Shown here piece by piece: positions 49,340-59,301 of a stretch of DNA of 64,000 nt. The translations under genes were made by a program, and so were the position numbers. The stretch spans positions 14,391 to 78,390 of the forward strand of contig JBNMQC010000003.1 of NCBI GenBank assembly GCA_051277445.1, read 5' to 3'. Source of the stretch: Bermanella sp. GTDB lineage: Bacteria > Pseudomonadota > Gammaproteobacteria > Pseudomonadales > Oceanobacteraceae. Numbering within the stretch: the first letter of the stretch is position 1; the number at the start of each line of letters is the position of its first letter. The notes beneath the pieces were generated by a model. It did no database searches. It was not told where the DNA came from and worked only from the letters and a program-made list of their open reading frames with translations.

Positions 49340-49412
49340 TAAGTTTCAGGTTTAATCTATTTTTCGCACTGTTCTAGCTGCTTCGATAGCGTTTGTTGAG
49401 CTATTGACGAAT

Positions 49413-49455
49413 ATAAAAAACCGCGATTAGCTGAAAGGCTATCGCGGTTTTTTAT
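49413..49455. terminator. Bidirectional intrinsic terminator, copy 2 (overlaps the stop of the orphan ORF)
   Basis: A6-CCGCGAT...ATCGCGG-T6; near-identical to 49020-49063. Confidence 0.85.
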
Positions 49456-50816
49456 ATTGTCGTCATAATTAAAGTGTATACAAAGCCATTAAATTTATAA
49501 GTCGGCAATGGTCCTTTATAATCACTTCCTTGAGGGTTCCCATCTAAGATAGCTTTCATTTGCATGTCAGGAAGACCATTAGTTTTTTCCTGAGAGAAAG
49601 AAAGCTCATATTTATATTTATAGCATTTAATGGCAGGTCCATATGCTGAATGGGTACCACATGACCCTATGTTTGATTGTCCTGTAATTCCATTCCACAC
49701 TACATCAAAGGAACCACTATTTGGATAAATAATAGACGATAATATGATTTCATTCTTTTGTTCCATTGTATGATTGTTTATAACGAAGAATCCTGAATTA
49801 CTTATAAGGTTGATAGCTGTTCCTTTTGCATCCCTTCTACCTTCTAAAAATGTAATAAACTTATTTATATTGGTTGCTTCCCAATTATCACCCTCTTTTT
49901 CAAGAGTGATGGCTGAAATTAATGGGGTGCACTCTATACAAATTTGTTTATTATTAATTGGCTTGGACTTAGTAATTGCTAATATACGATTTTCGTTTAG
50001 GTTGATCTTCTTTATTATAGTGGAAACAATATTTCTATTACTTTTGTTCCAGTATGTTTTTATTCTTGGTTCTTTATTGATGCTTAATGTATCAAAATCA
50101 TCGGGTAAATTCCAAATTGAAATCTTCTTATATTCTGAGCAGGTCCCAAATAACTTTATAAGTATTAAACAGTCTAATGAATTACTTATATTAGTTAGAA
50201 AGACTTTATTTGGTTGAAGATCGATCGTTAATATTGATCTAACTACTTCTGAGTCATTATTATAAGAACTGGATTTACCTGATTCTAATTTAACTGAATA
50301 TCTTTTAGTGAATTTATTTAATAAAAATGAAGAGTTTATATTAGATGAGTATAGAGATATTTTTCGCTTATTTGATTTTACATAATAAGAAATAGAGTTT
50401 TCAGTAAAGTCACTATTTGATCTAAATTTAATGCTGTTGTTACTATTTTTTAATTTTTTCACCCCTGGCTTTAGAGTTTTTTCCATGAATTTAGCATGAT
50501 CAATAGAATTTTCATGTTTTTTGTCAAAGACAGTGCAAGTTGTTAAATCATATACGATTACATAGTCGTTATATGAATATGCAAGGCTCTTTTTATCCTC
50601 TGTGTATTGGCTTTTTAATTTATCTGATAGTGGCTTCAACCTATATTTTTTAATAGTTGGCATGATGTTTCTTGATGCGGTGAATTCATTTAGGCAAGCT
50701 TCGCTAAATAGTGATATGGAACTTGGGTAGTTTGAAGGTTTTTTATTTAATGCGCACCCTGTTAGGGTTATGCAAAAAACAATAATAAATATGTTGGTAT
50801 ATGCTTTTTCAAACAT
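49452..50816 (-). CDS. AT-rich hypothetical lipoprotein, 454 aa
   Basis: Lipobox LTGC, several Cys including CIEC, and K/N/S/I-rich composition; GC is clearly below the flanks (sampled lines 17-42%). I recognise no family. Confidence 0.7.
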   Translation of the reverse strand: MFEKAYTNIFIIVFCITLTGCALNKKPSNYPSSISLFSEACLNEFTASRNIMPTIKKYRLKPLSDKLKSQYTEDKKSLAYSYNDYVIVYDLTTCTVFDKKHENSIDHAKFMEKTLKPGVKKLKNSNNSIKFRSNSDFTENSISYYVKSNKRKISLYSSNINSSFLLNKFTKRYSVKLESGKSSSYNNDSEVVRSILTIDLQPNKVFLTNISNSLDCLILIKLFGTCSEYKKISIWNLPDDFDTLSINKEPRIKTYWNKSNRNIVSTIIKKINLNENRILAITKSKPINNKQICIECTPLISAITLEKEGDNWEATNINKFITFLEGRRDAKGTAINLISNSGFFVINNHTMEQKNEIILSSIIYPNSGSFDVVWNGITGQSNIGSCGTHSAYGPAIKCYKYKYELSFSQEKTNGLPDMQMKAILDGNPQGSDYKGPLPTYKFNGFVYTLIMTTI

Positions 50817-51346
50817 TATTAATTTCTCTAAATAAATGATCTATAACCCCAATATCCACGCCAGCTTGAGGTAACAAGGTCGAGGCTTGGTCATGGGTTT
50901 GGTGATAAAATTATTGGGAGATGAATTCACCAAAATTCTTGCTAGCGCTTTCTCCTTTGATTAGTAAACGTGCTGTCTAAATCCGCTTCGCTTAATTGAG
51001 TGATAACCCAATCGCTTATAATTGCTTCTATTTCAAATCGAGTGTTTTTAAATGCTTAGAAATTGGTAAAAAGCATTTGACCAGCAGATTCAAAAGTGGG
51101 GTGCTTATCAAGTATTTTTAACTTTAAAAATGTCTGGTTATCAGGGCCATGATTCAAAAAGAAACGGCGCAGCCACAATAAATCGTACACTAATATCAGA
51201 TTTAGTGTATCGAGAATAGGCTTAAAATACGAGCTGTGATCTGCATTAAGCTGATCGAAGGATAAAGACGAAGTGGCATCTAATGCTTGGTAATTAAGGC
51301 GGCTATTATATTTAGCGAAGGTTTGAAAGTGCTGTAAGCCGTTCAT
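50809..51346 (-). pseudogene. DinB-family protein pseudogene
   Basis: AKYNSRLN..., YFKPILDTLNLILVYDLLWLRRF; TAA at 51056-58; in-frame continuation IISDWVITQLSEADLDSTF; frameshift near 50960; then KGESASKNFGEFISQ*FYHQTHDQASTLLPQAGVDIGVID. Confidence 0.85.
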
Positions 51347-51533: not shown

Positions 51534-52127
51534 ATGGATAGTACGATGATCACTTGGGCCGTAATTATCGGTGCCATTTTATTTATTGCCATGATGTTTA
51601 ACCGCTTGGTGGCACTGCGTAATCGCCATAAGAATGCGTTCTCGCAAATCGATGTGCAGTTACAGCGTCGTTATGACCTGATCCCTAATTTGGTTGAAAC
51701 CGCTAAAGGGTATGCGAAACATGAACGTGAGACCTTAGAAGCGGTGATCTCGGCGCGTAATGAAGCCAGTGCCATTTTGAAAGGCTTACAAGCCGGCAAT
51801 GCAAACGGTCAATTAGATGTGAGTGCACTTAACGGTGCGGAAGATGTACTGGGCGGCATGATGAGTAAATTATTTGCATTAAGTGAGTCCTACCCAGATC
51901 TTAAAGCGGATGCTCAGTTTCAGCAGCTGATGGAAGAATTGAGTTCAACCGAGAACCGCATCAGTTTTGCCCGCCAAGCATTCAACGATGCGGTGATGGC
52001 TTACAATACCTACCGTGAGTCATTCCCAAGTAATATCATTGCTAACGGGTTTTCATTCCAAGCAGCCAACTTATTAGAGTTTAAAGATAAGGCTATAAAA
52101 AAACCGGTCAAAGTTAACTTTGGTTAA
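51534..52127 (+). CDS. lemA: LemA family protein
   Basis: N-terminal TM, NAFSQIDVQLQRRYDLIPNLV, ESYPDLKA and TENRISFARQAFND motifs. Confidence 0.96.
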   Translation: MDSTMITWAVIIGAILFIAMMFNRLVALRNRHKNAFSQIDVQLQRRYDLIPNLVETAKGYAKHERETLEAVISARNEASAILKGLQAGNANGQLDVSALNGAEDVLGGMMSKLFALSESYPDLKADAQFQQLMEELSSTENRISFARQAFNDAVMAYNTYRESFPSNIIANGFSFQAANLLEFKDKAIKKPVKVNFG

Positions 52128-52159
52128 TGTCTTATAGCTTTAAAAAGTGAACCTGTAAT

Positions 52160-54136
52160 ATGGATTTTTTTGAACACCAAGCCCATGCAAAAGCAGCCAG
52201 TCGTCGGCTGCTTTTGTTGTTTGTGCTGATCTGTTTTGTGTTTATCTCACTGGTAAATAGTGTCTTTTATCTATTTATTCATTTATTTCAAGCGACCCCT
52301 TCGGGTGTGACTGGCCCCAGTTGGTTGATGAGGTTTTTATCGTGGCAGTTTAGTGTCGACGGATTAATTGCCAGTTCCATCTCTATTTTTATTATTGGTA
52401 TTGGTTGCTTGTCTCGTTGGCTTGAATTGCGTAAGGGCGGTAATGGGTTGGCTATTAAAGTGGGCGCACGCTCCCTTGGCTTTGCTTCTAACGTTGAGAA
52501 AGAGCAGCAACTGATTAACGTGGTAGAGGAAATGGCCATCGCGTCAGGAGTTACTTCTCCTGGGGTTTATGTATTGGATCATGAGAAGTCTATTAATGCG
52601 TTTGTCGCAGGGTATAGCTTTCAAGATAGTGCTTTAGTCGTCACCAAAGGCTTGCTCGATAGTATGAGCCGAGATGAACTTCAAGCGGTTGTGGGTCATG
52701 AATTTAGTCATATTCTGCATGGAGACAATCGCATCAATATTCGCCTTCTGGTTTTGTTAGCGGGTTTTGTATGGGTAGTTGAACTCGGTCGTATGATGAT
52801 GGTGGACTCTTATTCACGCCATAAATACGGTGCTAAACATTGGGGGTTTAACTCTTGGAATAAACGCTCAAATAAAGACTCAGGCGCGGTGTTTTTTATC
52901 GGCATCCCTTTGATGATAGCAGGTTACATCGGTTTGTTTTTTGGCATGGTTTTACGTACTGCCATTAGTCGAAAACGAGAATACTTAGCAGACGCCTCTG
53001 CGGTTCAGTTTACGCGTAATCCAGAGGCCTTGGCCAGTGCCTTAAATGTGATTAAAGAAAATGCCCAGCATGGCTTTTTAAAAATGGCGCGGGCAGAAGA
53101 GGTGAGCCACATGTGTATCTCGCCAACAAAGCGATACAGCTGGTTCGCGACGCATCCACCCATTGAAAGCCGAATTAATGTTATCGATAACACGTTTTTT
53201 ACGCGCTTTAAATCGCGAATGCGTAAAAAAGACAAGCAAAAAGAACAGGCACAACAACAAAGCCAGATGAGGCAGGCCGCCAGTAGTATTTATCAGGCAG
53301 ATGTCAGTCGATTACAAAACGAAGGCAATCAGCACTTACATAATGTCATTGGTACTCTAACATTGGCAAATCTTGATTATGCTATAAGCCTGCATGATCA
53401 GATGCCATTTGAATTTCGACAATCTTTACAGGACCCTGAAAAAGCGAGGATTATGTTGCTGTACCTGTTGCTAGACGACAATGAGGTTGTTCGTCAGCAG
53501 CAGCAGGCGTGGTTGCTTGAACAATACCCAGATGCGGCCATGTACTTAAAAACCCTAACCTTGCTTGCCAGTTCGTTACAAGCTCGCTTTGCTATTCCCT
53601 TAGTGGAATTGTTGGTGCCACTGTTGAAAACCTTAGATGGCCAGGTGCAGCAGGGATTATTGGAGCAGGTGTTGGTTCTGGCTAAGTGGGATAAAAAACT
53701 GAATCTATTTGAAATTTGTTTGTATAGCCTGCTTAAGCAATCATTTTCAGAGATTTTACCTAATCGTTCATCTCATACGATTAAAAACATCAATGTTGTG
53801 TCGTATGAATTTAATTACATTATTTCATGTTTGATTCATAACACGGGCAGCGCTGAAAATGAAAGAAGCGCACTGCACAAGCGCATGCTTAATGTGTTTA
53901 CCATGAAGCAAGGTGCATTGATTGAAGAAAAAGAAATCAGTGCGAAAAAACTGTATTTAACGCTTAAAAAATTAGCCTCGCTTTCGCCCATGTTAAAGCG
54001 TTCACTCATGGACGTGTGCGGGGATATTGTCTTGCATGATGGTATTGTGCGTGCGCAAGAGTACGAAGCGCTAAAACTCATTAGTTTAACCTTATCTTGC
54101 CCTATGCCTGCTTTACCTTTAACAACAAGCACTTAA
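52160..54136 (+). CDS. M48 (HtpX-like) membrane zinc metalloprotease with a C-terminal extension
   Basis: NVVEEMAIASG, INAFVAG, HEFSH (HExxH), REYLADA and ATHPP motifs; about 300 extra C-terminal residues. Confidence 0.9.
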   Translation: MDFFEHQAHAKAASRRLLLLFVLICFVFISLVNSVFYLFIHLFQATPSGVTGPSWLMRFLSWQFSVDGLIASSISIFIIGIGCLSRWLELRKGGNGLAIKVGARSLGFASNVEKEQQLINVVEEMAIASGVTSPGVYVLDHEKSINAFVAGYSFQDSALVVTKGLLDSMSRDELQAVVGHEFSHILHGDNRINIRLLVLLAGFVWVVELGRMMMVDSYSRHKYGAKHWGFNSWNKRSNKDSGAVFFIGIPLMIAGYIGLFFGMVLRTAISRKREYLADASAVQFTRNPEALASALNVIKENAQHGFLKMARAEEVSHMCISPTKRYSWFATHPPIESRINVIDNTFFTRFKSRMRKKDKQKEQAQQQSQMRQAASSIYQADVSRLQNEGNQHLHNVIGTLTLANLDYAISLHDQMPFEFRQSLQDPEKARIMLLYLLLDDNEVVRQQQQAWLLEQYPDAAMYLKTLTLLASSLQARFAIPLVELLVPLLKTLDGQVQQGLLEQVLVLAKWDKKLNLFEICLYSLLKQSFSEILPNRSSHTIKNINVVSYEFNYIISCLIHNTGSAENERSALHKRMLNVFTMKQGALIEEKEISAKKLYLTLKKLASLSPMLKRSLMDVCGDIVLHDGIVRAQEYEALKLISLTLSCPMPALPLTTST

Positions 54137-54163
54137 CACTTTTCCTACCCCCTAGGTGATATG

Positions 54164-54183
54164 GCAATACTTGACTGTATTGC
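54164..54183. promoter_or_regulatory. Palindromic operator centred on a -35-like hexamer
   Basis: GCAATAC-TTGACT-GTATTGC, 58 bp upstream of the first gene of the operon; TATAAT at 54207-54212. Confidence 0.5.
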
Positions 54184-54241
54184 TCAGAATGCTACAAGTT
54201 GAGACATATAATCAATTTCAGTTCACAAAAGGGGGTGTGGC

Positions 54242-55030
54242 ATGTCCACACAGCTAACGCCAGCACAACTTCGTCATGCGATTCGCACGGGCGAGCACAC
54301 GACTAATACCTCTGGCCTATGCCAAGGTTTCGTGCAATGTAACGTAGCGATACTCCCTAAAGCGTGGGCGGATGAATTTCTCCAGTTTTGTCAGTTAAAC
54401 CAAAAACCTTGCCCTGTGGTGGCCATGGCCGCACAACCCGGTGATACGAACCTTGTCGAAATAGCCCCCGATTTTGACATTCGCACCGATGTGCCTAAGT
54501 ACCGTATTTGGAAACATGGTGAGCTTGTGGATGAGGTTGCTGACATCTCTAATGTGTGGCGCGATGATCTCGTCACCTTTTTACTAGGCTGTTCGTTTAG
54601 TTTTGAAGAAGCCTTGATCGCAGATGGTCTAGAAGTACGTAACATTTCTGAAGGCAAGAACGTGCCTATGTACGACACTAACATTGCGTGTCGAGAAGCG
54701 GGTCGTTTCCACGGCAATACGGTGGTGAGTATGCGCCCGTTTAAACCTGCCGATGCTATTCGTATGATTCAAATCTGTAGCCGTTTTCCCTCGGTTCATG
54801 GCGCGCCGATTCATTTTGGTGATCCAGCTGCCATTGGTATTAAGGATATTAATAAGCCCGAATACGGCGATGCAGTGACTATCAAAGACGGTGAAGTGCC
54901 TGTGTTTACCGCTTGTGGTGTGACTCCGCAGGCCGCCATCATGGCGGCAAAGCCTGAGTTTTGTATTACACACTCACCGGGCCACATGGTCGTCACGGAT
55001 ATTCCTAATTCTAAGCTAGCCATTTTATAA
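54242..55030 (+). CDS. DUF1445 family putative hydro-lyase (YcsI-like; N-terminal domain of D-glutamate cyclase)
   Basis: [57 protein letters not shown] and THSPGHM motifs. Confidence 0.9.
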
Positions 55031-55039
55031 GGAGTCATC

Positions 55040-55777
55040 ATGTCGTTGTTATTAAATTGTGATCTTGGTGAAAGTTTTGGCTCTTGGAAAATGGGCTTGG
55101 ACGAGGATGTATTCCCTCATATTGACCAAGCCAACATTGCCTGCGGTTTTCATGGTGGCGACCCGCTTGTAATGATGAAAACCCTAGGCCTAGCTAAAAA
55201 ATACGGTGTGATGGTTGGCGCGCACCCAGCGTATCCAGATCTTGTGGGGTTTGGTCGTCGCTCGATGAATTGTTCCGAGCCTGAAGTCATTGCATTCATG
55301 TTGTATCAGATGAGTGCGATGGACGGCATGGCAAAAACCCAAGGCTTAACCATGGAGTATGTAAAACCCCATGGAGCCTTGTATAACGATATGATGTCCA
55401 AGTTAGATGTGCGTCGTGCCATTATGCAAGCGGTGGCGCAATTCCATCGCCCTGTAAAATTAATGCTGCAAGCCACAAACGATGCCAAGGCCCATGAACA
55501 AGAAGCGGCAGACTTCGGTATTGATCTATTGTTTGAAGCCTTTGCTGATCGCTGTTATGACGACGACGGGAAATTACTCGCGCGCAGTAAACCCGGCGCC
55601 GTGCACACTAAAGAAAAAATGTTGGCGCAAGTAAAGCAGTTAAACGAGCAAGGCACCATTACCTCGGTGAGTGGTAATACCTTACATATAAAGGCGGATT
55701 CTTTATGCGTGCATGGCGACAACCTTGACGGTGTTCAAGCCATCGCTCAGATCCGCCAACTGATTCAAGGGTCATAA
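55040..55777 (+). CDS. pxpA: 5-oxoprolinase subunit A (LamB/YcsF family)
   Basis: LNCDLGESFG, ANIACGFHGGDP, VKPHGALYN, EAFADR.Y and SLCVHGDN motifs. Confidence 0.95.
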   Translation: MSLLLNCDLGESFGSWKMGLDEDVFPHIDQANIACGFHGGDPLVMMKTLGLAKKYGVMVGAHPAYPDLVGFGRRSMNCSEPEVIAFMLYQMSAMDGMAKTQGLTMEYVKPHGALYNDMMSKLDVRRAIMQAVAQFHRPVKLMLQATNDAKAHEQEAADFGIDLLFEAFADRCYDDDGKLLARSKPGAVHTKEKMLAQVKQLNEQGTITSVSGNTLHIKADSLCVHGDNLDGVQAIAQIRQLIQGS

Positions 55778-55778
55778 C

Positions 55779-56480
55779 ATGCGAATTCATGTGGCCGGTG
55801 AAAATGCCTTAATGGTGTATTTTGCAGACACGGTAAGCGATGCCACCAGTGCGCAAATTCAACATACCGCACAAGGGTTAGCCCAGCACTTGGGTGATGT
55901 GCTCATTGATCTTGTGCCCAGTTATGCCTCCATGCTGGTGCTGTTTGATCCGCTCAAAACCGACCATATTCATGTGCGTAAACTCATACGTGGTGCAGCT
56001 TCACACCCTCAAGTTGAGCAAGACTCTCAGCAAGAGAACATTGTGCGTTTGCCCGTTTATTATGGCAGTGAGACCAGCCCAGATCTTGCCCATATTGCGC
56101 AAAATGCAGGTTTAAGCGTTGAGCAAGTGATCGAGATTCATCAACAAACATTGTATCGGGTCTATGCCATTGGCTTTGCCCCAGGTTTTGCGTATCTAGG
56201 TGAAACCGATGCGCTCATCGCCACGCCCCGTCTTGCGACACCACGTAAAAAAGTGCCTAAGGGTGCGGTGGCCATTGCCGATCGTCAAACCGCGGTATAC
56301 CCAGCCCCAAGCCCTGGTGGTTGGAATTTAATAGGCTGTTGTCCCACGCCTATGTTTGATCCAAAAGGTACACCGGCTATGCCTGTACAAGCCGGTGATG
56401 CTGTGCAGTTTTATGCCATCGACAAGGACGAGTTTCTCGCTTTAGGTGGCACTTTTGACGCATGGGGAGAAATCGAATGA
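55779..56480 (+). CDS. pxpB: 5-oxoprolinase subunit B (KipI family)
   Basis: DLVPSYAS, GFAPGFAYLG, PKGAVAIA.RQTAVYP and PGGWNLIG motifs. Confidence 0.95.
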   Translation: MRIHVAGENALMVYFADTVSDATSAQIQHTAQGLAQHLGDVLIDLVPSYASMLVLFDPLKTDHIHVRKLIRGAASHPQVEQDSQQENIVRLPVYYGSETSPDLAHIAQNAGLSVEQVIEIHQQTLYRVYAIGFAPGFAYLGETDALIATPRLATPRKKVPKGAVAIADRQTAVYPAPSPGGWNLIGCCPTPMFDPKGTPAMPVQAGDAVQFYAIDKDEFLALGGTFDAWGEIE

Positions 56481-57436
56481 GCCCGTCTATTCAGATTTTA
56501 AACCCAGGTATTTTAACCCTGATTCAAGATGCTGGGCGTTACGGTCAGCACAGCGTGGGCTTAACCACAGGCGGTCCCATGGACCCGTTGGCGTTCAAGT
56601 GGGCCAATCGCTTAGTGGGCAACGACGAACACGTTAGCGCGTTAGAAACCACAATCGGTGGTATTAAAATCAAGGTGAACAGTTGCACACAAGTGGCAGT
56701 AACCGGAGCGGAAGTCTCCGTGAAGGTCAATGGCCAAGCAAAAGCGCAATGGCAAACCTTAAACTTGAAAGCGAGCGACGAATTAGAGCTGGGCTACGCC
56801 ACACAAGGCTGTCGCATTTATATTGCTTTCGCGAGTGGTCTGAATATCGAGCCACAATTTAACAGTACCAGTACTGTCGTACGTGAGGGTATCGGTGGTT
56901 TAACTGGCAAGGGCCTGCAAGCCGGTGATGTGCTTGAGCTTAACCATGAAACCCTTGAGGACAGCCGCTGGCAGTTACCTGAAAGCGCACGCCCTGTATA
57001 TGAAGACACTGTGACCTTGCGTTTGATACCCGGCTATCAAGAACACCATTTTTCTCGTCATCAACAGCGCATGTTCTTCTATCATGAATATAAGGTCAGT
57101 GACTTGTGTGATCGTATGGGCTATCGCTTAACCGGCCCTAAAGTGACCTGTGATATCGAAGGTATTTTATCTGAAGGGATATGCCTAGGTGCAGTACAAG
57201 TACCAAAAGATGGTCAACCCATCGTGTTGATGAACGACCGCCAAACCATCGGAGGGTATCCCAAAATCGGATCGGTGTTGTCGATAGATTTAGCCAAACT
57301 AGCGCAACTCACCGCCGGTGGCACCGTGAAGTTTGAACCCATAACCATTGACCATGCCCACAACGAATTGGCCCTTGCGCAATATCGCTATCGCCATCAA
57401 GCCCTCGTTGCTGTTACATCCGAGGAAATAAAATGA
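56477..57436 (+). CDS. pxpC: 5-oxoprolinase subunit C (KipA family)
   Basis: IQDAGRYG, GGPMD...ANRLVGN, DRMGYRL, GAVQVP.DGQPI and DRQTIGGYPK motifs; ATGA overlap with pxpB. Confidence 0.95.
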   Translation: MSPSIQILNPGILTLIQDAGRYGQHSVGLTTGGPMDPLAFKWANRLVGNDEHVSALETTIGGIKIKVNSCTQVAVTGAEVSVKVNGQAKAQWQTLNLKASDELELGYATQGCRIYIAFASGLNIEPQFNSTSTVVREGIGGLTGKGLQAGDVLELNHETLEDSRWQLPESARPVYEDTVTLRLIPGYQEHHFSRHQQRMFFYHEYKVSDLCDRMGYRLTGPKVTCDIEGILSEGICLGAVQVPKDGQPIVLMNDRQTIGGYPKIGSVLSIDLAKLAQLTAGGTVKFEPITIDHAHNELALAQYRYRHQALVAVTSEEIK

Positions 57437-58296
57437 GCCAATTAACCACGGCCATGCAGTTAAGCGTTGATATTGAAAACATGCTGGTAGAGCGCAACTT
57501 ACGGGGCATGAAAACCGTACAAGGCGCATTGCCACAAGGTTATGTATTGCGCGCTGCGCAAATGATGCTGCCCATCCGCGGCACGGTGTTGATCGGTACT
57601 GGTTTTCCTGTTGTGGATACGTTTGAAACCGATGGCCCTGTGGGCGCTATTGCACTGTATCAAGCATTCGAAGCGCTTGGTGCAAAGCCGGTGATTGTCT
57701 GTGGCGCGCCATTAAGTCAGGAGCTTGCCCAAACTTATCGCGTGCATGAAATCACCGTGGGCCCCGCTGCCCAGCGCGACGAAGAGGCCCTAAAAGGGTT
57801 AGCCCAATTGCAGCCTGAATTAATCGTATCCATTGAACGCCCAGGTCTGGCGGCCGATGGTAAGTACTACAATATGCGCGGTGAAGACATCAGTGCTCGC
57901 GCAGCTTGCTTCGATACGTTTTTGATTCATGCGCAGTGTCCAACCATCGCCATTGGCGATGGTGGCAACGAAATCGGTATGGGCAATATTCAAGACGCCT
58001 TAAAAGGGTTGGACATTCAAGCGGCGGCCACGGGCTGTAATGAGTTAGTGATTGCTGATGTTTCTAACTGGGCCGCACTGGGTTTGATTGCCATGTTGGA
58101 TTGGTTAAGCGGTCAAGACTTACTGGCCAAGTTAGATGCCATGGCGGTATTAGAATTCTTATCCAAACACGGCAGCGTGGATGGCGTGACCCGAGAAAAC
58201 ACATTAACCGAAGACGGTTTGCCTGCTCAGGATGGCATTGATTTATTGAACCGCTTACGAACGTTAGTCAGTGACAAGAAATTAGTTAGTCAATAA
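57433..58296 (+). CDS. DUF4392 family protein (D-glutamate cyclase-like C-terminal domain)
   Basis: GTGFP, ETDGPVGA, SIERPG, YYNMRG, IGDGGNEIGMG, VSNWAA and DGVT motifs; ATGA overlap with pxpC. Confidence 0.88.
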   Translation: MSQLTTAMQLSVDIENMLVERNLRGMKTVQGALPQGYVLRAAQMMLPIRGTVLIGTGFPVVDTFETDGPVGAIALYQAFEALGAKPVIVCGAPLSQELAQTYRVHEITVGPAAQRDEEALKGLAQLQPELIVSIERPGLAADGKYYNMRGEDISARAACFDTFLIHAQCPTIAIGDGGNEIGMGNIQDALKGLDIQAAATGCNELVIADVSNWAALGLIAMLDWLSGQDLLAKLDAMAVLEFLSKHGSVDGVTRENTLTEDGLPAQDGIDLLNRLRTLVSDKKLVSQ

Positions 58297-58321
58297 TGAA
58301 ACATTTTATAAGAGGTGCTTT

Positions 58322-59179
58322 ATGAGCATTGTATATTTAGACAATAGTTATATGCCGATGTCTGAGGCAAAAATTTCACCCATGGACCGTGGTTTTTTGT
58401 TTGGTGATGGCATCTATGAAGTGATTCCCGCTTATGATGGAAAGCTGGTGGGTTTTGGCCCGCACATTGATCGTATGAATCAAGGTTTGGAATTAATTGG
58501 TATTGATTTCAAATGGAACCAAGACCAGTGGCGTGAAGTGTGTGAGCAACTGATTGCCAAAAACGAAGGTGATAATCTAGGTATTTATTTACACGTCAGT
58601 CGTGGTGCCGATACCAAGCGTTTTCATGCCTATCCAGAAAATGTGGCGCCAACGGTATTTGCTTACGCGTTTGAAATTCCACCGGCGAATGTGCCAGACA
58701 AAACAAAAGCAAAAGGCTATAAAGTGGCCACGACACAAGACATGCGCTGGCAGCGTTGCAATATTAAATCCACCGCGTTGTTAGGCAACGTGATGCATTT
58801 CCAATTTGGTTATGCACAGGGTTACAACGAAACCTTACTTTATAATGCAAAAAATGAATTAACCGAAGCCGGTGCATGTAATGCTTACATCGTTAAAGAC
58901 GGTGTAGTGATTACACCGCCATTGGATAACCAAATTCTACCGGGTATTACCCGTTTAATGTTGCTAGAAATTCTTGCTAAATATAGCGACATTAAGGTAG
59001 AAGAGCGCATTGTCACCATGGATGAAGTGTTCAATGCCGACGAAGTGTGGATTACCAGCTCATCAAAAGAAATCGCACCAGTGGTTGAAATTGATGGTAA
59101 GCCAGTTGGTAATGGTGAAGTGGGTGATGTGTGGCTTGCTGCGCAAACTCAGTACACCGCACACAAATTTGAGTTTTAA
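58322..59179 (+). CDS. dat: D-amino acid aminotransferase (PLP fold type IV)
   Basis: DRGFLFGDGIYE, YLHVSRG...KRFH (the Arg/His pair typical of canonical DAATs), RCNIKST (PLP Lys), ILPGITR and TSSSKE motifs. Confidence 0.85.
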   Translation: MSIVYLDNSYMPMSEAKISPMDRGFLFGDGIYEVIPAYDGKLVGFGPHIDRMNQGLELIGIDFKWNQDQWREVCEQLIAKNEGDNLGIYLHVSRGADTKRFHAYPENVAPTVFAYAFEIPPANVPDKTKAKGYKVATTQDMRWQRCNIKSTALLGNVMHFQFGYAQGYNETLLYNAKNELTEAGACNAYIVKDGVVITPPLDNQILPGITRLMLLEILAKYSDIKVEERIVTMDEVFNADEVWITSSSKEIAPVVEIDGKPVGNGEVGDVWLAAQTQYTAHKFEF

Positions 59180-59222: not shown

Positions 59223-59258
59223 AAAAGCCTGTCTTTATTTTTAAAGATGGGCTTTTTT
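59223..59258 (+). terminator. Intrinsic terminator of the pxp-dat operon
   Basis: AAAAGCCTGTCTTTA...TAAAGATGGGC-T6. Confidence 0.8.
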
Positions 59259-59301
59259 GTTTGTACGGGTTTTATGATCAGAGACAAATGAAGGGTAAAA
59301 G

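Follow-up and report, generated by a model that had tools for sequence, protein, structure and literature searches.

Gene organization of the locus

The window analyzed here, i.e. the whole stretch of 64,000 nucleotides (nt) from Bermanella sp. (contig JBNMQC010000003.1 of assembly GCA_051277445.1), contains in positions 54242-59179 of the + strand six co-directional open reading frames (ORFs), which encode a DUF1445 protein, the subunits PxpA, PxpB and PxpC of a lactam hydrolase, a DUF4392 protein and a transaminase, Dat (Table 1). The families were assigned by Pfam and NCBIfam profile searches with the window proteins. As read from the sequence, DUF1445 and pxpA are separated by 9 nt, pxpA and pxpB by 1 nt, and DUF4392 and dat by 25 nt, and the two remaining junctions are ATGA overlaps in positions 56477-56480 (stop of pxpB and start of pxpC) and 57433-57436 (stop of pxpC and start of DUF4392). 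All six starts have a Shine-Dalgarno-like, purine-rich run just 5' of them; the longest ORF of pxpC begins at 56462, yet the GGGGAG spacing belongs to the ATG at 56477. DUF1445 and DUF4392 are two genes 2.4 kb apart, with pxpABC in between.

The composition, order, gaps and overlaps of the operon had been proposed in an earlier reading of this DNA made from its letters and ORFs only (hereafter, the sequence-only reading), and all of them are borne out by the ORFs, the profile matches and the junctions. The claim that the operon includes neither a transporter nor a regulator holds for the window and fails for many relatives, as a LysR-type regulator is found in 27 of the 80 compared loci (see below). 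The flanks of the operon consist of housekeeping genes, with LemA and an M48 protease upstream and lpxL-, hldE- and waaA-type envelope genes downstream.

Table 1. Coordinates of the operon genes and of the flanking regulatory features in the window.
Feature	Position	Strand	Evidence
Promoter / regulatory region	54137..54241	+	conserved blocks TACCCCCTAGG..TATGG..TTGAC in the alignment with the closest relatives (loci L001, L003)
Inverted repeat GCAATAC-N6-GTATTGC	54164..54183	.	arms of 7 nt, 100% complementary; overlaps a TTGACT hexamer
DUF1445 / YcsI-type protein	54242..55030	+	PF07286 (DUF1445 / D-Glu_cyclase), E 7.5e-68, 227 bits; NF003969
pxpA (LamB/YcsF family), lactam hydrolase subunit	55040..55777	+	PF03746; NF003816
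pxpB (CT_C_D, KipI-like subunit)	55779..56480	+	PF02682; TIGR00370
pxpC (CT_A_B, KipA-like subunit)	56477..57436	+	PF02626; TIGR00724
DUF4392 / GLUCM-like_C protein	57433..58296	+	PF14336, E 1e-67, 229 bits
dat, class IV aminotransferase, D-amino-acid transaminase type	58322..59179	+	PF01063, 174 bits
Intrinsic-terminator-like hairpin and T-run	59223..59263	+	closes the operon; hairpin with T-run in 59223-59256

Conservation of the gene cluster in Gammaproteobacteria

A collection clustered at 90% contains, at E <= 1e-5, 4782 relatives of the window DUF4392 protein; at 50% identity the family forms 1930 clusters. A scan of species-level genomes (one genome per species) yielded at least 575 matching places, the best 80 of which, with DUF4392 identity of 55-92%, form the locus set. 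The top genomic hit among the matches listed is a Bermanella metagenome-assembled genome with 92% DUF4392 identity, and the 80 loci span Oceanospirillales, Cellvibrionales (Halieaceae, Porticoccaceae), Alteromonadales (Colwellia, Rheinheimera, Arsukibacterium) and Thiotrichales. Cultured carriers of the cluster include Oceanobacter kriegii DSM 6294, Neptunomonas antarctica S3-22, Marinobacterium lutimaris DSM 22012, Amphritea balenae and Marinomonas.

Synteny was analyzed by tblastn with the six window proteins and by ORF clustering over these 80 loci. The block DUF1445-pxpA-pxpB-pxpC-DUF4392 is colinear in 59 of the 63 loci with enough upstream sequence, and this gene arrangement, recurring across four gammaproteobacterial orders, is far beyond chance. 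Of the 58 loci with enough downstream sequence, 51 have an orthologue of dat (identity of 50% or more) on the same strand at a distance of up to 6 kb, directly adjacent in 29 of them; it is missing from the other seven, where murI, dadA or a transporter were sought as a replacement and unrelated genes only were found. The alanine racemase gene alr occurs in 31 of the 80 loci, on the same strand and right after dat or right before DUF1445. The gene of the LysR-type regulator mentioned above is often inserted between DUF4392 and dat and otherwise sits right next to the cluster, and LysR or AsnC regulators are seen in many relatives.

As 59 of 63 loci preserve the colinear core and only a part of the loci include dat, alr or LysR, the five-gene core is the unit, with dat, alr and the regulator as frequent accessories; the window carries the core and dat. 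The co-occurrence of DUF1445, DUF4392, pxpABC and dat, which the sequence-only reading had proposed to survey, is thereby established for the core (59/63) and for dat (51/58), though the place of dat in the operon has to be restated: it does follow the core in most loci, and it is an accessory rather than a core gene. A conserved transporter was found neither in the 80 loci nor in the 80 more distant loci described below, with the exception of a major facilitator superfamily (MFS) gene beside the DUF pair in one distant clade. Envelope and division genes near the cluster in other lineages are dacA/rlpA/mltB or ftsA/ftsZ. A reduced form of the cluster, pxpA-DUF4392-dat-alr, is seen in one locus (L073:9234-12795), where pxpB, pxpC and DUF1445 are not found within 9 kb.

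Fusions and rearranged versions

In Porticoccaceae, PxpC and DUF4392 are fused into a single protein of 590 amino acids (aa), which represents a cluster of 193 members from many independent assemblies; the operon there is DUF1445-pxpA-pxpB-[pxpC::DUF4392]-transaminase-alr.

More distant versions were collected by a metagenome scan seeded with distant DUF4392 sequences, approximately 35-40% identical to the window protein, which provided 80 further loci. According to ORF clustering, 21 of the 34 loci of at least 6 kb have DUF1445 as the gene just upstream of DUF4392; by tblastn, about 40 of the 49 loci of at least 4 kb have it either in this place or within the cluster. Eight loci include pxpABC, arranged in one of three ways: as in the window; as transaminase-pxpB-pxpC-DUF1445-pxpA-DUF4392; or as DUF1445-DUF4392 preceded by alr and a class IV transaminase, pxpCBA being encoded on the opposite strand. 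The DUF pair of a distant marine clade (L141, L142, L147, L149, L153-L155 and others) is located beside a gene of the enolase superfamily (MR/MLE), an amidase gene and the MFS transporter gene. The various subgroups of the enolase superfamily include dipeptide epimerases and N-acyl-amino-acid racemases.

At least 368 proteins (E <= 1e-20) are fusions of DUF4392 with a MurD-like N domain and a Mur-ligase central (ATP-binding) domain; the members (P0360, P0411-P0529) come from SAR324, Planctomycetota, Thermodesulfobacteriota and Syntrophobacteraceae. Five of them carry DUF1445 at the C-terminus, forming a triple fusion DUF4392–Mur-ligase-like–DUF1445 of 864-932 aa. All three triple fusions that could be placed on contigs (L084:2725-9799, L087:1522-7982, L088:2-6290) lie directly behind and co-directional with a gene for a fused hydantoinase A/B protein, overlapping it by 4 nt in L087. 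This protein ranges from about 1200 aa (where a contig end cuts it) to 1400 aa, its best solved match being 7hk5 (E 8e-132). Its family includes the eukaryote-type 5-oxoprolinase and N-methylhydantoinase, that is, ATP-dependent enzymes opening five-membered cyclic amides, not homologous to PxpABC. The gene secA is located upstream in both L084 and L087, and, given that it is shared by two of the three contigs, the triple fusions probably represent one clade and not three independent events. Near the double fusions of DUF4392 and Mur ligase (L085, L086) no lactam hydrolase was found. A 306-aa protein encoded upstream of the L085 fusion was considered as a hidden DUF1445 and rejected (hhalign probability 0.6%).

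The two domains of the mammalian D-glutamate cyclase DGLUCY, which form one chain in the animal protein, are not in one chain in the window, and the bacterial fusions found elsewhere have a Mur-ligase-like insert. Taken together, DUF1445 and DUF4392 are functionally coupled in bacteria, just as in the one-chain animal enzyme, and their association with an ATP-dependent lactam hydrolase and with a D-amino-acid transaminase is seen repeatedly. The functional coupling of the cyclase halves, 5-oxoprolinase and Dat, assumed in the sequence-only reading, is strengthened by the synteny, the PxpC::DUF4392 fusion, the rearranged-yet-linked versions, the hydantoinase linkage and the recruitment of transaminases (see below).

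Other fusion partners of DUF4392 are an NlpC/P60 cell-wall peptidase domain (P0348), a zinc-ribbon domain (P0374) and, in four clusters (P0271, P0291, P0295, P0302), an S-adenosylmethionine-dependent methyltransferase domain.

DUF4392 and DUF1445 proteins

The DUF4392 protein, whose family PF14336 is covered by no NCBIfam model, matches the solved structure of TON_0340 from Thermococcus onnurineus with E 6e-31. In TON_0340, six acidic residues hold two Mn/Mg ions in a small cavity, with Glu59 being catalytic (PMC5132392). These ligands, E59, D61, E115, D157, E161 and D246, align with E65, D67, E135, D176, E180 and D261 of the window protein, and all six positions are invariant in 14 relatives (alignment A1). 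TON_0340 was assayed as a Mn-dependent phosphatase, the activity being lost in the D157L and E59Q mutants (PMC5132392).

The archaeal DUF4392 genes (L081/L082/L083; Thermococcus, Pyrococcus) are located in a conserved run of genes for an Hps-Phi fusion, a 250-aa protein, a HAD hydrolase, a 59-aa ORF, DUF4392 and an HD protein, with neither DUF1445 nor pxp genes at these three loci. The Hps-Phi, HAD and HD neighbours were tried as a functional guide and judged uninformative for the bacterial clade; the archaeal protein may act on a different substrate.

The DUF1445 protein scores 416 bits with the 'putative hydro-lyase' model NF003969 (cutoff 324) and matches 3db9 and 2pif at E 1e-85, both being structural-genomics entries without assigned function. 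Residues C50, C57, C117, C150, C225, H186, H244, E122, R133, R165 and D253 are invariant out to the triple fusions. A racemase fold of the Asp/Glu/hydantoin or proline racemase type was considered for this protein and is unsupported, as Foldseek returned 2pif, 3db9 and, weakly, 3nek (template modelling score 0.41-0.48). The latter is MJ0159, annotated as 'nitrogen repressor-like' (NrpR-like). NrpR proteins sense 2-oxoglutarate, so the likeness of the DUF1445 model to 3nek could be a hint of a fold binding C5 dicarboxylates, or noise.

The identification of the two DUF proteins with the two domains of DGLUCY, proposed earlier, holds at the level of homology (PMC5339696, PMC5132392).

Lactam hydrolase and transaminase

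PxpA, PxpB and PxpC are all present and encoded together (Pfam E 3e-88, 3e-69 and 4e-88, respectively). PxpA and PxpB exceed the curated cutoffs (NF003816, 338 bits vs 213; TIGR00370, 165 bits vs 145.55), and PxpC exceeds only that of the broader domain model TIGR00724 (277 vs 230), remaining below the equivalog cutoff of NF045499, PxpC_5OPro (226.6 bits vs 500). In B. subtilis, PxpABC was reportedly described by Niehaus et al. in 2017 as an ATP-dependent 5-oxoprolinase converting 5-oxo-L-proline to L-glutamate (L-Glu). The enzyme is held to act on 5-oxoproline formed spontaneously from glutamate and glutamine (as summarized in PMC10448178; bioRxiv 10.1101/2021.12.09.472016). Judging by mutant fitness, the paralogues of Pseudomonas putida differ in substrate, PP_4575-7 acting on 5-oxoproline and PP_2920-2 on butyrolactam (bioRxiv 10.1101/2021.12.09.472016).

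The nearest solved structures to Dat are D-amino-acid aminotransferases (4pbc, E 1e-55; 3daa, E 3e-52), compared to approximately 1e-34 or weaker for branched-chain ones. The alignment retains the Lys of the ..IKS.. motif, the R-x-H carboxylate-binding motif and the TE..N motif of fold type IV, where we take the roles of the catalytic Lys and of R-x-H to be those of the YM-1 enzyme. Dat is below the cutoffs of both NCBIfam models (NF005209, 254.6 vs 320; TIGR01121, 238.2 vs 277.45), which are still the best-scoring ones. The transaminase beside the cluster in Thiolinea (L021) shares only 35% identity with Dat of the window and reaches 407 bits against the D-amino-acid transaminase cutoff of 320, and for the transaminases of L148 and L160 the D-amino-acid transaminase models also score best, below the cutoffs. 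By these comparisons, at least two, and probably three, transaminase lineages have been recruited beside the cluster.

Upstream region and transcription

A TATAAT hexamer is located upstream of DUF1445 in positions 54207-54212, with a poor -35 element by eye, and the scan of the region upstream of the operon for consensus sigma-70 and sigma-54 promoters found none, hence the promoter may be activator-dependent. The inverted repeat, noticed earlier as an operator-like palindrome, is indeed present; its conservation is not borne out, and it was downgraded as a conserved operator, as the left arm differs in the alignment with the closest relative, L001. The chance expectation of a 7-bp perfect inverted repeat in approximately 100 nt is about 0.06-0.2 by our own estimate; due to such a chance-prone length and the loss of the left arm, the palindrome is weak evidence.

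Four marine metatranscriptome runs of one study contain a 95-99% identical strain. The assembled RNA contigs cross the junctions DUF1445-pxpA (54979-55442, 54660-55231), pxpC-DUF4392 (57342-58157) and DUF4392-dat (58270-58952, 58180-392, 57482-59032), and one contig stops at 59262, i.e. at the terminator; the intergenic region upstream of DUF1445 has zero coverage in three of the four runs. The contigs are assembler output without strand information, and DNA carry-over is possible, so the support for co-transcription of the operon, dat included, is moderate. The contigs joining dat to the preceding gene argue against a separate transcription of dat. The tight packing of the genes, with translational coupling, and the terminator agree with a single transcription unit. 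In the DUF4392-dat spacer (window positions 58297-58304), the metatranscriptome strain has nine extra bases, and therefore the length of this spacer is variable within the species. The exact sequence was found in a sea-ice metagenome.

Proposed conversion of D-glutamate to L-glutamate

Taken together, the locus is very likely one functional module dealing with D-glutamate (D-Glu) and 5-oxoproline. The reading that fits best is a route from D-Glu to L-Glu via 5-oxoproline, to which we assign a probability of about 0.4; its substrates, flux direction and inversion step are inferred. D-Glu would originate from peptidoglycan turnover, from uptake, or from Dat, acting on D-Ala or other D-amino acids and 2-oxoglutarate, so that, through Dat, the D-Glu pool would be connected with D-Ala and further D-amino acids. 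DUF1445 and DUF4392 would then close D-Glu to 5-oxo-D-proline, the reaction demonstrated only for the fused mouse enzyme DGLUCY, whose loss leads to accumulation of D-Glu (PMC5339696). Stereo-inversion of the lactam would follow, with either DUF protein or PxpABC itself as the candidate site, and PxpABC would open the ring with ATP, producing L-Glu. The net reaction, D-Glu + ATP -> L-Glu + ADP + inorganic phosphate, would be irreversible and would proceed without glutamate racemase. The tie to D-Glu draws on the mouse reaction, on the closeness of Dat to solved D-amino-acid transaminases, on the transaminases of different lineages beside the cluster and on the fusions of distant DUF4392 to MurD-like and NlpC/P60 domains; the complete metal site shared with TON_0340 also agrees with this reading.

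The fusions and the linkage to a second type of ring opener suggest that ring closure by the cyclase and ATP-dependent ring opening follow one another. If both used the same enantiomer, ATP would be spent in a futile cycle, so that such a succession would require a change of configuration in between. In a more specific version, which we consider rather unlikely, one DUF protein would be a 5-oxoproline racemase of a new fold and the other a D-Glu cyclase, the two in complex with the hydrolase acting as an ATP-driven one-way inverter; the several invariant Cys of the DUF1445 protein are compatible with a new-fold racemase.

A number of observations weigh against the conversion of D-Glu to L-Glu. 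Among the six operon proteins, the Pfam and NCBIfam searches revealed no known racemase or epimerase domain, and the AlphaFold model of DUF1445 (predicted local distance difference test score 76), compared by Foldseek with the PDB, retrieved its own family and the weak 3nek match, with no racemase fold. Mammals excrete 5-oxo-D-proline (PMC5339696), and hence the fused animal enzyme is not obviously racemizing. In the distant clade, the 8 kb around the DUF pair lack pxpABC at most loci, and the archaeal DUF4392 is found among sugar-phosphate genes, with TON_0340 assayed as a phosphatase. As the PxpABC paralogues differ in lactam specificity, the window enzyme may, by analogy, be D-specific or open another lactam. 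Finally, alr in 31 loci fits Dat draining D-Glu to D-Ala at least as well as feeding D-Glu, and a nutrient-uptake pathway without a conserved transporter would be unusual.

Part of these observations would be accommodated if both enantiomers of pyroglutamate were salvaged and channelled into central metabolism, which we regard as unlikely: PxpABC, or a D-specific form of it aided by the DUF proteins, would open 5-oxo-D-proline (and 5-oxo-L-proline) to D-Glu (and L-Glu), Dat would convert D-Glu and pyruvate to 2-oxoglutarate and D-Ala, and Alr would convert the latter to L-Ala. No racemization of the lactam would be needed here, as the transaminase step removes chirality. The position of alr, on the same strand right after dat or right before DUF1445, and the diverged specificity of PxpABC paralogues agree with this scheme, the LysR or AsnC regulators hint at a unit that is inducible and serves catabolism, and the DGLUCY reaction is reversible in principle. 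Still, dat is missing in seven of 58 loci, the PxpC::DUF4392 fusion and the triple fusion behind hydantoinase are harder to explain by parallel branches, and a DUF pair acting as D-Glu cyclase next to a D-specific PxpABC would again produce a futile cycle. The same regulators, seen in many relatives, speak against a constitutive housekeeping role, in which Dat (with Alr) would supply D-Glu and D-Ala for the cell wall and the core would clear spontaneous lactams of glutamate or excess D-Glu. Such a role, quite improbable in our estimate, is consistent with the lack of a transporter in the 80 loci and of a regulator in the window, with the spontaneous formation of the PxpABC substrate (see the references above), with the fusion of distant DUF4392 to MurD-like ligase domains, and with the envelope genes near the cluster (lpxL/hldE/waaA in the window and dacA/rlpA/mltB or ftsA/ftsZ elsewhere), though the envelope neighbourhoods vary by lineage and are possibly coincidental.

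The DUF proteins could also be accessory to an ordinary L-5-oxoprolinase or to a hydrolase of another lactam, DUF4392 being, for example, a Mn-dependent phosphatase of a phosphorylated intermediate or side product, and the link to D-Glu incidental. The phosphatase assay of TON_0340 and its D157L and E59Q mutants (PMC5132392), the archaeal neighbourhood of HAD and HD hydrolases and sugar-phosphate genes, the association of DUF4392 with a Mur-ligase-like, acyl-phosphate-forming ATP domain, and the physical association suggested by the PxpC::DUF4392 fusion all point in this direction. Nevertheless, we consider a purely accessory role very improbable. Mouse DGLUCY does have D-Glu cyclase activity, with D-Glu accumulating in the knockout (PMC5339696), D-amino-acid transaminases of different lineages have been recruited beside the cluster, and the phosphatase activity of TON_0340 is reportedly limited to generic substrates. 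As for functionally unrelated genes packed together by chance, high gene density and housekeeping flanks would allow for it, and its probability is next to negligible in view of the synteny in four orders, the fusions, the versions that are rearranged yet linked, and the linkage to a non-homologous lactam hydrolase.

Relation to known systems

A close precedent for the core is the pxp operon of B. subtilis, which we take to include the regulator kipR. Its genes pxpA(ycsF)-ycsG-ycsI-kipI(pxpB)-kipA(pxpC) also bring together those of 5-oxoprolinase and DUF1445 (YcsI), in line with the tendency of DUF1445 to cluster with pxp genes on which the sequence-only reading had relied (PMC10448178). Unlike in the window, neither DUF4392 nor dat is listed there, and the transporter gene ycsG is (PMC10448178). 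YcsG is a Mn importer, which parallels the Mn/Mg site of DUF4392 in the window. YcsI has no assigned function, and in the literature searched no role related to D-enantiomers has been proposed for it.

Mammalian DGLUCY (C14orf159, EC 4.2.1.48) shares with the locus both PF07286 and PF14336 and the conserved metal ligands of DUF4392 (PMC5339696, PMC5132392), but it is one polypeptide, located in mitochondria, and its product is excreted, whereas here the proteins are separate, encoded by non-adjacent genes, and accompanied by a ring opener and a transaminase. TON_0340 (PDB 4dwz/5gkx; PMC5132392) belongs to the same DUF4392 family and has the same six ligands and catalytic Glu, differing in the phosphatase assay and in its context, which consists of sugar-phosphate, HAD and HD genes with no DUF1445 or pxp genes. 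The PxpABC paralogues of P. putida have the same three-subunit lactam hydrolase architecture with varying specificity, but no DUF1445, DUF4392 or Dat partners have been reported for them (bioRxiv 10.1101/2021.12.09.472016). The D-amino-acid aminotransferase of Bacillus sp. YM-1 and its relatives (3daa, 4pbc, 9pxs) are, as the closest solved proteins, of the same fold type IV, whereas the window Dat is below the NCBIfam cutoffs and sits in a pxp/DUF operon, its function being predicted.

The DgcN-DgcA system of marine Proteobacteria converts D-Glu to L-Glu without glutamate racemase (as cited in PMC10845958), as the proposed route would. If the proposed route holds, the two would have in common that the amine is acylated before the inversion at C-alpha, by N-acetylation in the case of DgcN-DgcA (PMC10845958); unlike there, the acyl group would be the own gamma-carboxylate of the substrate, and the opening of the ring would cost ATP. 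By Pfam and NCBIfam, the six proteins include neither an acetyltransferase nor a homologue of N-acetyl-amino-acid racemase.

In approximately 8 million open papers and bioRxiv, with subscription papers being outside this search, no description of the function or of the operon of bacterial DUF1445/DUF4392 was found, nor any publication of the pathway, and the statement of the sequence-only reading that no characterized bacterial operon is known to have this full composition stands within that scope. Split homologues of human DGLUCY in six gut species are listed in one preprint, which makes no comment on their function (PMC11580864). Thus, the component families are known, and their combination and the implied pathway appear undescribed.

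D-Glu and D-Ala of peptidoglycan constitute a sizeable share of marine dissolved organic nitrogen, and the ways in which bacteria return D-Glu to the L-pool are only partly known. Abundant marine Gammaproteobacteria commonly carry the cluster, with at least 575 matches among the species-level genomes. It brings together YcsI/DUF1445 and DUF4392, both of them widespread and neither having a firmly assigned function; the human orthologue of DUF4392 has been implicated in cardiac D-Glu metabolism. The proposed route, if true, would be a new mode of amino-acid inversion, internal N-acylation followed by ring opening paid for with ATP, and would explain why YcsI travels with 5-oxoprolinase genes. 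Should the version with a new-fold racemase be true, it would provide a function for bacterial YcsI and for the second domain of human DGLUCY, and a third oceanic route of D-Glu assimilation beside MurI-type racemases and DgcN/DgcA.

Genes upstream of the operon

Positions 51534-54136 of the window contain the LemA gene followed by the gene for the 658-aa M48 (HtpX-like) protease, which has a C-terminal extension of approximately 300 aa without a domain match; this pair is kept upstream of the operon in the closest relatives only (L001, L003). Further upstream, positions 49400-51200 form a low-GC island (25-36% vs approximately 46-50% around it) with an ORF of 454 aa on the - strand (49452-50816), located between glyA and lemA, for which neither Pfam nor PADLOC gave a match.

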